Source: Anaerolineales bacterium UBA3071 (GTDB lineage Bacteria > Chloroflexota > Anaerolineae > UBA3071). From it: a DNA stretch of 48,627 bases. Positions 18,502-21,408 of this stretch are shown here, piece by piece (position 1 is the stretch's first letter; every line of letters begins with the position of its first letter). The notes beneath the pieces were generated by a model. It was not told where the DNA came from. It worked only from the letters and a program-made list of their open reading frames with translations, and ran no database searches. The stretch spans positions 15,508 to 64,134 of the forward strand of contig DFBV01000018.1 of NCBI GenBank assembly GCA_002366755.1, written 5' to 3'. The position numbers were made by a program, and so were the translations under genes.

Positions 18502-21408
18502 TTAACACTCCTTCAGCGTTCGCTTCCCTATCCACCCATCGACAATTTGTACAAGTTTCCCCTGATCAAAGGGAATGACCAAGTTGTGCTTATTCGCCAA
18601 GTTGCGAGTCACTTGACAGAATATGTTCACAGTCCATTGAAAAGCCGTCCAGAGAGCTTCCTCATCATACAAGGCCACAGTTTTCGTCAAATTAGCATTT
18701 ATGCCGGTAGAGTTGATCTTTTCCAGACCCTTAGCAACAGCCTCGCCAGGATCAAATGCACCTCCCTTTGCATGGAGGTGCAGGAGTACAAATAGATGTT
18801 CTCGCATCTTGTTCAAAGTTGCCATTGCATGCCATATTTCCCCACGGTGCAAGCTGGCACAGACCTTTGCACAGTCAAACCAGAATGCCGTGACGCGCTC
18901 TCCAAATTGTCGCCCGACATTGCAATGGAACTCAATTTGCTTCTGCGCCTGGATGAATCGGCTGAAAGCTCCCGTCTTGTCCACGAGGACTTGGGTGCGT
19001 TTGTGGAAGGGATTGGGTCCCAATTCCTCCATCGTGGTAAGAAGGAAATCGCATATCGTGCCATTCGCATAGAGCACGCGGTGGATCGCAGAGGCAATTC
19101 CCTTCACACTCTTCCGTTTATGTGTAACGATTGTCTCGCCAAACTGTCGCATCCATTCAATCATTAAGGCATTGAATTCATCAGCCCGATCTTTATCAAC
19201 CACCAACATAAAATCTATATCAGAGTACCTATCTGCGTACGCAGCGCCAGAGGAGCCACTGACGCCCACGCCTTGGATGCGCTCATCCTGACGGGCGAGT
19301 TCCATCACCCGCAACATCGTTTGTTCCTGTTGCGATGCTTCATGCATGTAGTTCAGTTCCGTCCTATTCAGTTTCTCAGTTTGGCCGATGTCGGCCACCA
19401 CGGGGCTACCGGCATTGGTTTGCGTGGGCAACAGGAAGGACTGGTCGCAGGCAAGAGCCTGGTGGAACGCCTTGATCAAATCGGGTTCGTGTCGGTCAAG
19501 CCAGCGCAGGGTGTCCAAGTAGTCATGCATGAAAGGCAACCTACTCTGCCCAGTTTGATAATATAGCAAGGAATGCAAATATATCAGTTCGATACATCGG
19601 CCACGAAGCGCATCCACAATCAGCGAGAGCTCTTCAAGGAGGAGGAAGTTCGTTTGCTGGTAGGCTTGCAAGAAAGTTATGGCGCGATCAGCGTCAATCA
19701 CGCCAGCCTCTCCTGGACAGAATTGCTTTAGGGCCCAAGCGAGGTCACAGACTCGCTCCTGGTAACGAGCTTCATCAAAGTCAAAAATGCCACACACGTG
19801 ATTGTCGGCGTCGAAGAGAACGTTGTCAGGCCTGAAATCTCCGTGGGTAATCAGATAGGGAGATGGCAACCCTCGGAGGCCACCAGTCCGCGTGGCGGTG
19901 TTGGAGGTCACTTGGGCATGTAATCGGGCCTTGAGTTCACAAATCTTTTGCTTCACGTAGGTGTGGTTTTTGAGGATGAAGGCATCAATCTCTCCTTTAC
20001 CATGACGTGCTTGCTCAACAAAGCTCCCGAGATCAAAATGATGTTCAGCATCCGGATCAGGATGGGAAGCAGGAGGAAAGCGGCGGGTGAGTTCCGCTAC
20101 AAACATATGGTCAATTGTCACATCCTGCATCACCTTGTGATAGCGACCCAAGAATGCTCCAGCGCTGTGGAGTTGCTCCAACTTCCCATCGAAAGGAGCA
20201 CCGTCTAACCAGCGCGTCAAAACGCAATACCGGCCATCTCTTCCTTGCAGCACGTATGGATTGAGTTTAGTGCCCCGATGCGACTCCGTAATTGGCCTGG
20301 CCAATGGAATTTGCTGTAGACCTTTGTCCTTGAGGGTCTTCATAAGTGAGGAAACAAACAGCACCATCTCCTTGGGTAATATCGGCGAGAATATCTTTAA
20401 TGCGTATACTCCCTCAGAGCTAAGGATCTTGTAAATCCACCGCAAGTCTTCCCGTACAGGAATGCACTTCTCAATGGAGAGCCCGAAGGCCCCTTCAATC
20501 AAAGAAAGATCAAACTCTGGCCCGACCGACGCACGGTCGGCTAGATTTTTCTGACGATCTGCAACCAACACGGAGAATGCCTGAGTGGCCTGCGCCCTAT
20601 CTGCAGTGCTGGCTTCTGATCCGGCTCCCCCTGGCGATAGAGATGTCAGTTCGACAGTCGCACCACCCTCTGTGCCCCAGTCCCCAGCCAAGAGCATCGG
20701 CAATTCCTTCAGCGCAGTGATGGATCGGTCAGTCTCAGCTTCAAAAGTGTTCTCTCGATATGGTAGTCGCCTGAGGATAGTCTTCATGCCCAATTGGTGT
20801 GGGCCAAATACATCTTCGAAAGTGCGGTCTCCGACAAAGACAGCCTGCTCAGGCTCTGCATTCAACACCCGTAGGGCCTGCTCAAAAATGGCCGAATGCG
20901 GCTTGACAATGCCGACTTCCGAGGAACAGACCAGGCAGTCGAAGTAATCCAGAACTTCCCATCGTGAGAGATACTTCAGGTGCACGGCCAGCGGCCAGAT
21001 CGTGTTGGTGACCACGCCCAGGCGGAGTCCCTTTGTCCGGAGTTGTTCAAGGGTCCGCGTAGCGTCTTCATCCAACGACAGGGATGGCGATATCGTCTCG
21101 TGAAAGATGTCCCAACAAACCGCGTGCTCGGCCAGCGGAAGATGGACTCCATGCTTCATCAGTTCGTGCCAGAGGAGATCGCGCAGATTTAGCCCTTCCA
21201 TATGGTCAAAGCAGTGACGCCAGTATTCTTGTATCTGGGCATCAAGAGCGGTACAGAACGTCTCTGGACTGGGCAACGCATATCCCTGAGCCGTCAGGTG
21301 CTCGTGAATCCTCCGCAAGCCCCGCAGATTCATCGTGCGGACATCTATTTCTGCATCACCGTAGAAGACGAGCACTCCGCCCAAATCGAAGAGCACGGCG
21401 CTGAACAT
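18502..21408 (-). CDS. Tri-domain fusion: HAD-like hydrolase + APH/choline-kinase-like phosphotransferase + Pol-beta-type nucleotidyltransferase (968 aa)
   Basis: N-terminal VLFDLGGVLV (HAD motif I variant). Middle ITHGDFRPDNVLFD and IFDFDEA (kinase catalytic and DFD motifs). C-terminal GVSGSSG...YSDIDFMLVV (GS...DxD nucleotidyltransferase). Confidence 0.8.
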   Translation of the reverse strand: MFSAVLFDLGGVLVFYGDAEIDVRTMNLRGLRRIHEHLTAQGYALPSPETFCTALDAQIQEYWRHCFDHMEGLNLRDLLWHELMKHGVHLPLAEHAVCWDIFHETISPSLSLDEDATRTLEQLRTKGLRLGVVTNTIWPLAVHLKYLSRWEVLDYFDCLVCSSEVGIVKPHSAIFEQALRVLNAEPEQAVFVGDRTFEDVFGPHQLGMKTILRRLPYRENTFEAETDRSITALKELPMLLAGDWGTEGGATVELTSLSPGGAGSEASTADRAQATQAFSVLVADRQKNLADRASVGPEFDLSLIEGAFGLSIEKCIPVREDLRWIYKILSSEGVYALKIFSPILPKEMVLFVSSLMKTLKDKGLQQIPLARPITESHRGTKLNPYVLQGRDGRYCVLTRWLDGAPFDGKLEQLHSAGAFLGRYHKVMQDVTIDHMFVAELTRRFPPASHPDPDAEHHFDLGSFVEQARHGKGEIDAFILKNHTYVKQKICELKARLHAQVTSNTATRTGGLRGLPSPYLITHGDFRPDNVLFDADNHVCGIFDFDEARYQERVCDLAWALKQFCPGEAGVIDADRAITFLQAYQQTNFLLLEELSLIVDALRGRCIELIYLHSLLYYQTGQSRLPFMHDYLDTLRWLDRHEPDLIKAFHQALACDQSFLLPTQTNAGSPVVADIGQTEKLNRTELNYMHEASQQEQTMLRVMELARQDERIQGVGVSGSSGAAYADRYSDIDFMLVVDKDRADEFNALMIEWMRQFGETIVTHKRKSVKGIASAIHRVLYANGTICDFLLTTMEELGPNPFHKRTQVLVDKTGAFSRFIQAQKQIEFHCNVGRQFGERVTAFWFDCAKVCASLHRGEIWHAMATLNKMREHLFVLLHLHAKGGAFDPGEAVAKGLEKINSTGINANLTKTVALYDEEALWTAFQWTVNIFCQVTRNLANKHNLVIPFDQGKLVQIVDGWIGKRTLKEC

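Follow-up and report, generated by a model that had tools for sequence, protein, structure and literature searches.

The 48,627-nt stretch of contig DFBV01000018.1 from Anaerolineales bacterium UBA3071 analyzed here (hereafter the window) carries a minus-strand gene of 968 codons that is predicted to encode a fusion of a HAD phosphatase, an APH-fold kinase, and a Pol-beta nucleotidyltransferase (NTase) of the ANT(6)/LinB type. The gene belongs to an operon whose predicted product is an exported modified peptide, a graspetide. We consider the chances evenly balanced that the fusion tailors the product of its own operon or a toxic intermediate, and/or masks it for self-protection, by means of phosphorylation, nucleotidylation, and dephosphorylation. 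This reading draws on intact domains and motifs, on membership in the operon as seen from gene spacing, Shine-Dalgarno (SD) sites and GC content at third codon positions (GC3), on the ancestral presence of the gene, and on signs of selection.

The gene forms a single 968-codon frame with an ATG start, and the longest open reading frames (ORFs) in the other frames across the same interval reach only ~120 aa. The original prediction, which left the strand unstated, had described three catalytic modules in this ORF, and Pfam domain matches together with intact active-site motifs bear this out. The motifs that it quoted are found in the order given, with FDLGGVL at residues 7-13, HGDFRPDN at 522-529, DFDEA at 543-547, GSSG at 718-721, and DIDF at 730-733, and neither the middle nor the C-terminal region lacks its catalytic residues, the motifs of both kinase and NTase being intact. 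The domain limits are approximate and were set by alignment to stand-alone homologs, including P0004 and P0010; they leave linkers of ~53 residues between the first two domains and ~27 residues between the second and third. At neither domain border did we find a Shine-Dalgarno site combined with a start codon, so internal initiation was ruled out and the fusion is expected to be translated as one chain. An AlphaFold2 single-sequence model reached a mean pLDDT of 36, which is too low for use. Judged by its sequence, the ORF encodes one genuine polypeptide comprising three enzyme domains, all of them predicted to be active.

The N-terminal domain can be placed in the HAD superfamily because residues 3-212 score above the Pfam gathering thresholds (HAD_2, 67.1 bits versus 23.8; Hydrolase, 64.5 versus 26.4) and all four motifs are found: motif I FDLGGVL with the nucleophile Asp8 and a Gly at D+2, motif II VVTNT, motif III K169, and motif IV GDRTFED. 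Motif I reads D-L-G-G and does not have the second Asp, the D+2 general acid/base, of classical HAD phosphatases. Since Gly at D+2 (DxG) also occurs in 103 of the 128 closest stand-alone HAD homologs, it represents a family trait and not decay, and the domain is predicted to belong to a conserved DxG subfamily. E. coli YihX is among its PDB matches, and the NCBIfam model TIGR02253 for HAD-type hydrolases stays below its cut-off (101.3 bits versus 169.75). HAD enzymes of this branch hydrolyze phosphomonoesters.

The middle domain matches APH (PF01636) over residues 326-585 with 79.8 bits against a gathering score of 23.2 and has the expected N-lobe lysine (Lys338 in YALKIF), the catalytic loop HGDFRPDN (HxDxxxxN), and the metal site DFDEA. 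These motifs align with APH(2'')-Id and the homoserine kinase 2ppq at the catalytic loop and the metal site; by profile, 2ppq is the closest solved structure (E 2.5e-8). The homoserine kinase type II models PRK05231 and thrB_alt match only the C-lobe and do not reach their cut-offs (61.7 bits versus 271 and 45.8 versus 255.9). Enzymes of the APH family phosphorylate hydroxyls. The C-terminal domain matches Adenyl_transf (PF04439, "streptomycin adenylyltransferase") over residues 694-949 with 88.9 bits against 22, and its G718-S719, D730-I-D732, and third carboxylate D787 (CDF, 786-788) align with ANT(6)-Ib. Its structural matches are ANT(6)-Ib (8vxb), AadK (2pbe), and LinB (3jyy), with which it has in common the fold, the Pfam family, the G-S...DxD metal site, and a helical C-terminal domain. 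However, the HMMER similarity to 8vxb is weak (31 bits), the NCBIfam ANT(6) model NF033084 scores 46 bits against a cut-off of 420, and in the fusion the NTase is joined to two other enzymes. ANT(6)/LinB-type enzymes transfer AMP onto hydroxyls. As all three domains stay below the curated equivalog cut-offs, they should be regarded as superfamily members and not as any named enzyme.

On the minus strand, the genes follow each other in the order graspetide precursor, MvdD/TIGR04187-like ATP-grasp, ABC exporter, PurA-like enzyme, fusion, and S66 peptidase (Table 1). The PurA-like stop codon lies 18 nt upstream of the fusion gene, with GGAGG 7 nt before the fusion's ATG, and the GTG start of the S66 gene lies 1 nt past the fusion's stop, with AAGGAG within the last fusion codons. 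The tight coupling of these three genes that had been proposed is therefore correct as far as spacing and Shine-Dalgarno sites go, but spacing is no proof of a shared metabolite. GC3 is 0.57-0.63 in the operon genes (0.58 in the fusion) versus 0.80-0.85 in the flanking efflux genes, and base composition is even across the three fusion domains. Scans for promoters and terminators inside the operon gave results at chance level. PADLOC returned no match, and we rejected a role in a known anti-phage defense system on this ground.

Using the closest PurA-like proteins, we reached six sister contigs from several samples, of which five were readable and two carried the whole operon. The latter two, L071 and L072 (Logan), have genes for an SBP-domain protein, the precursor, the ATP-grasp, the ABC exporter, the PurA-like enzyme (75% identity), and the S66 peptidase (83% between the window and L071) in the same order and without a fusion gene. 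In L077 and L078 (ENA, 76%), and in L076 and a JGI contig (66%), the PurA-like gene likewise adjoins the S66 gene and the fusion gene is absent. A blastn alignment of L071 with the window consists of two blocks, 25978-21381 and 18504-17420, separated by a clean 2.87-kb difference. In L071, L072, L077, and L078, the spacer takes the form of an in-frame mini-ORF of 19 codons, such as MLEVQVFCVVLLDLDGQD followed by a stop codon (10265-10325 in L071, 1709-1769 in L077, 1752-1812 in L078). It runs from the start of the HAD domain through two codons to the original stop, leaving 1 nt to the S66 start. Within it are codons 1-11 of the HAD domain, motif I included, and in L071 23 of these 33 nt match the window in an ungapped, position-anchored manner; L076 has only a shorter trace of the fusion gene. 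Because a spacer that encodes the HAD motif can only be a remnant, the comparison indicates that the ancestral operon had the fusion gene and that the sister lineage lost it by an in-frame deletion. The mini-ORF itself may have been retained for translational coupling of the S66 gene.

Since precursor, ATP-grasp, exporter, PurA-like enzyme, and S66 peptidase all stay intact without the fusion, the fusion gene is accessory and not part of the operon core. All six sister contigs keep the PurA-like and S66 genes adjacent in its absence, which suggests that these two work without it and does not support the claim that all three genes act on the same metabolite. The sister operons represent natural knock-outs that separate core from accessory genes beforehand. 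Third-codon identity between the window and L071 is 0.59 for the PurA-like gene and 0.70 for the S66 gene. When we simulated random substitution of the fusion ORF, 0.4% of the copies were still free of stop codons at 5% substitution and none at 10%. Given the low third-codon identity to L071 and how rarely simulated copies stay open, the fusion frame is held open by selection. We found nothing in this genome that closely matches the flank of L071, which fits a mobile island and an operon that moves horizontally.

The collections that we searched for the fusion hold ~15 billion proteins altogether. In a word-indexed full-length search of 5.8 billion clusters, the query protein itself was the sole match. 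An HMMER scan of 1.84 billion representative proteins gave 11,930 matches, and among the best 150 there was no second HAD+APH+ANT protein; all were single-domain proteins except one, P0003. The single-domain matches comprise HADs of ~245 aa, ANTs of ~280 aa (best 31% identity), and one APH protein of 385 aa (28% identity). A three-domain relative of similar divergence would outscore such proteins, so none is in this set, while more distant analogous fusions may lie beyond the reach of the scan. Three 480-aa proteins with two matched stretches were considered as fusions and rejected, as they are HAD-HAD tandems. The closest stand-alone ANT, APH, and HAD proteins are rare metagenome proteins, one of them from a Nanoarchaeota metagenome-assembled genome (MAG). 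In 40 relatives and 400 genomes of the phylum, we found only stand-alone HADs or weak ANT-like genes, and the flanks of nine ANT-like genes of the phylum contain no HAD, APH, S66, PurA, or ATP-grasp partner. Searches for related loci with P0003, P0008, P0010, and an ANT alignment yielded nothing usable in genome or metagenome contigs. The architecture is thus a singleton in the collections searched and is neither common nor housekeeping. Each domain family is well known, and it is their three-domain combination that appears to be new among these collections.

P0003 is an uncharacterised protein of 391 aa in which a HAD domain is fused to a Pol-beta NTase; it is encoded on a 1.4-kb contig of high GC (L021, JGI 3300023199). 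Its HAD domain is 40% identical to that of the fusion and also has the FDLGGVL motif. The HAD domain and a linker are followed by a homologous NTase N-terminus (E 2e-9), there is no kinase domain, and the NTase breaks off early, as if frameshifted or truncated. By its sequence, P0003 is a second, unrelated HAD-NTase fusion, and we count it in favor of a tailoring and/or masking role.

The immediate upstream neighbor is a PurA paralog that retains the GTP and IMP motifs (GDEGKG, NA(C)HT, and TKLD). Its aspartate site is rewritten, with Trp in place of Arg131 and TTDIPLR as the sequence of the TTGRxRR loop (TTGR(P/R)RR). Position 131 is Arg or Lys and the loop is of the TGRxRR type in nearly all of 47 ordinary PurA genes; a few candidate-phylum sequences vary. 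The protein is only 44% identical to PurA of a same-genus genome. We rejected a housekeeping PurA on the basis of the replaced aspartate-site arginines and this low identity, and the PurA-like enzyme is predicted not to bind aspartate. It belongs to a variant clade of which we found nine representatives with a rewritten aspartate site (P0219-P0227). Genes adjoining these representatives encode S66 or S26 peptidases, ABC exporters, redoxins, and LanB. The downstream S66 peptidase scores 155 bits to MccF structures versus 81 bits to murein tetrapeptide carboxypeptidase, which clearly places it, by profile, in the MccF clade and not in the LdcA clade.

From the domains, motifs, operon position, ancestry, and selection described above, we infer candidate substrates and an order of steps. 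The kinase would phosphorylate a Ser, Thr, or Tyr hydroxyl of the peptide or a ribose hydroxyl. The NTase could adenylylate a hydroxyl or build on the newly added phosphate by NMP transfer, and the HAD domain might take off phosphate, either to unmask the product before export or to trim a nucleotide 5'-phosphate. A channelled pathway and a layered self-resistance are both possible roles. As a Rosetta-stone link, the fusion indicates that DxG-type HADs, APH-fold kinases, and ANT(6)-like NTases, three families with many stand-alone metagenomic members of no known function, can act together on one substrate.

Several points weigh against a tailoring and/or masking role. The fusion was seen once, in a MAG of 289 contigs that is 74% complete, and we know of no relative of it with a known substrate. 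Unless kinase and phosphatase target different positions, their union in one chain would set up a futile cycle. The ANT(6) and APH relatives are classic modifiers of small-molecule drugs and not of peptides. Furthermore, the sister operons and four other PurA-like contexts, in which S26 peptidase, ABC exporter, redoxin, and LanB genes occur, are without any HAD, APH, or ANT gene, so the tie of the fusion to PurA-like chemistry is not conserved.

A bolder form of the tailoring reading is that the fusion and the PurA-like enzyme together make and handle a peptide-purine-nucleotide hybrid, with a mask/unmask cycle in one protein and a new class of nucleotide-decorated RiPPs (peptides made on the ribosome and modified after translation); we regard this as speculative and rather unlikely. 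Here the PurA-like enzyme would join IMP to a graspetide amine, after which the fusion might cleave off the 5'-phosphate and place phosphate or AMP on a hydroxyl of a ribose or of the peptide. If true, this would be a RiPP class with its own three-in-one tailoring and immunity enzyme. The operon combines graspetide chemistry with a purine enzyme put to new use and an immunity peptidase of the microcin C type, and it offers a concrete system for finding ribosomal peptides that bear phosphate or nucleotides, and their means of self-protection.

Drug resistance is an unlikely function, in which the fusion would phosphorylate or adenylylate foreign aminoglycoside-, lincosamide-, or macrolide-like compounds, thereby inactivating them, and would ride in the operon while leaving its product untouched. 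ANT(6)-Ib, AadK, and LinB are indeed the closest solved relatives of the C-terminal domain, but the resistance models scored far below their cut-offs (ANT_6, 46 bits versus 420). Similarly, the kinase has a catalytic loop common to APH(2'') and APH(3'), and bifunctional resistance enzymes such as AAC/APH exist and turn up among the kinase-domain matches, whereas no APH resistance model is among the best 25 of 52 NCBIfam matches. Resistance leaves no role for a HAD phosphatase, which would reverse the phosphorylation. The gene is dispensable in sister operons, as expected for a passenger, yet the operon had it from its ancestor on, its translation is linked to that of the MccF-like gene, and in nine genomes of the phylum ANT-like genes stand alone.

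Kinase-adenylyltransferase fusions are common in cofactor synthesis, and a salvage or activation line, in which a phospho-metabolite would be dephosphorylated, re-phosphorylated elsewhere, and converted to an NDP-linked donor, is a further alternative that we find distinctly doubtful. The domain order HAD, APH-fold kinase, NTase parallels MupP, AmgK, and MurU of MurNAc salvage (PMC5371407), and ADP-heptose synthesis by HldE and GmhB also joins a kinase, a HAD phosphatase, and an adenylyltransferase (PMC10221265). In these pathways, the three activities act in sequence on one small molecule, but either each enzyme is a protein of its own or fusion is limited to kinase and NTase (PMC5371407, PMC10221265). 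The NTases of both pathways and the HldE kinase have folds other than those of the fusion. AmgK is an APH-fold kinase and MurU belongs to PF00483; for the fusion, no PF00483 match is listed by Pfam, and its NTase is of the PF04439/Polbeta type. Known members of this Pol-beta ANT(6) family act on hydroxyls and not on sugar-1-phosphates. The S66 family of the neighboring gene includes the murein-recycling LdcA, but the protein itself falls into the MccF clade, and the window ORFs scanned include neither a glycosyltransferase nor anything else that would consume an activated donor.

That the ORF is an assembly artefact, i.e., three genes joined by error, or a decaying, non-functional relic is highly improbable: it is a singleton in a fragmented MAG and is lost from every sister operon found, but both gene ends are anchored in conserved operon sequence, two in-frame junctions are hardly expected by error, the domains are uniform in composition, every catalytic motif is intact, and all 968 codons stay open although synonymous sites have diverged deeply from the sister operon.

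A tailoring and/or masking role has its nearest parallel in the lasso peptide pseudomycoidin, whose C-terminal Ser is phosphorylated by PsmK and whose phosphate decoration requires PsmN (PMC6993621). Both systems are RiPP operons in which a kinase and an aminoglycoside-NTase-like enzyme of Pol-beta-type fold are optional for the core scaffold. The likeness is one of logic only and the pair is of another type: PsmK belongs to the HprK family whereas the kinase here has the APH fold, and PsmN is an uncharacterised NTase resembling ANT(2'') whereas the NTase here belongs to PF04439. PsmK and PsmN are also separate proteins without a HAD partner, in contrast to one fused chain that includes a HAD domain and is associated with a graspetide. 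In a published survey covering over 20,000 graspetide clusters, PF01636 phosphotransferases occur in 62% of group 37 (PMC13097080 supplement), and group 39 has an HprK-related kinase (82%) and a PF14907 uncharacterised nucleotidyltransferase (68%; PMC13097080, supplement file 111). In the latter group, purF and FGAM synthase genes are frequent neighbors and form a further tie of graspetide clusters to purine enzymes, and the survey does not list PF00709, S66, or PF04439 (PMC13097080).

The S66 peptidase brings in microcin C as a further comparison. MccF confers immunity against aminoacyl-nucleotides, and its neighbor in E. coli is MccE, a two-domain tailoring and immunity fusion (PMC8323819). 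Both operons thus have a fused multi-domain modifier beside an MccF-type peptidase at the operon end, with a product that in the present operon may likewise be of peptide-nucleotide type, and masking a toxic intermediate by covalent modification would follow the logic of MccE2 (PMC8323819). However, MccE combines a decarboxylase with a GNAT acetyltransferase, to neither of which any domain of the fusion is homologous. The adenylating MccB/ThiF enzyme of microcin C is not found in the window, where the PurA-like enzyme is in its place, and none of the 28 window ORFs scanned, which leave out a few such as 8659-9387, has a ThiF-like domain.

Table 1. Fusion gene, its domains and linkers, and the other operon genes (window coordinates).
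Feature	Position	Strand	Basis
HAD-APH-ANT three-domain fusion ORF (P0001), 968 aa	18502..21408	minus	ORF calling, Pfam/NCBIfam scans
HAD phosphatase domain, residues 1-242	20683..21408	minus	Pfam, NCBIfam, motifs
Linker 1, residues 243-295, Gly/Ser/Ala/Thr-rich	20524..20682	minus	Alignments to stand-alone homologs
APH/homoserine-kinase-II-like kinase domain, residues 296-653	19450..20523	minus	Pfam, NCBIfam, structure-profile matches, motifs
Linker 2, residues 654-680	19369..19449	minus	Homolog alignment
ANT(6)/LinB-type Pol-beta nucleotidyltransferase domain, residues 681-968	18505..19368	minus	Pfam, PDB matches, alignment
Graspetide precursor, start codon uncertain	25760..25981	minus	Leader common with sister contig L071
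MvdD/TIGR04187-like ATP-grasp peptide maturase	24584..25636	minus	Pfam, NCBIfam, related loci, sister contig
ABC exporter, permease and ATPase fused	22741..24690	minus	Pfam, NCBIfam, sister contig
PurA-like gene (PurA*)	21427..22707	minus	Pfam, NCBIfam, alignments
S66 serine peptidase, MccF clade, last operon gene	17502..18500	minus	Pfam, structure-profile scores

The precursor ends in ...WDCEDDYYCD, and the loci related to its ATP-grasp come from Chloroflexota MAGs. The precursors of the window and of L071 (5681-5917) have a common leader, E-E-x-PFGM ... LDGHYDPDRQLFVNxNGTPIFG, and unrelated cores. Both cores end in Asp, which deserves attention beside a PurA-like enzyme and an MccF-like peptidase.

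Upstream of the precursor, four large SBP-domain proteins (857-917 aa) are encoded in a row at 26387-39439 on the minus strand, with a radical SAM/SPASM gene (35634-36761) among them. The first of the four (26387-29140) is part of the island common with L071 (74% identity). At the other end, the homology to the sister island extends ~80 nt past the S66 stop, to 17420, and thus into the 5' part of a 602-aa membrane-fusion ORF (15693-17501), whose 5' end was probably called too long in the region 17220-17501. Further along, the efflux operon carries a PF05635 "23S rRNA intervening sequence protein" gene (12010-12468, minus strand) between its MacB-like permease and ATPase genes, with a GC content below that of its neighbors.

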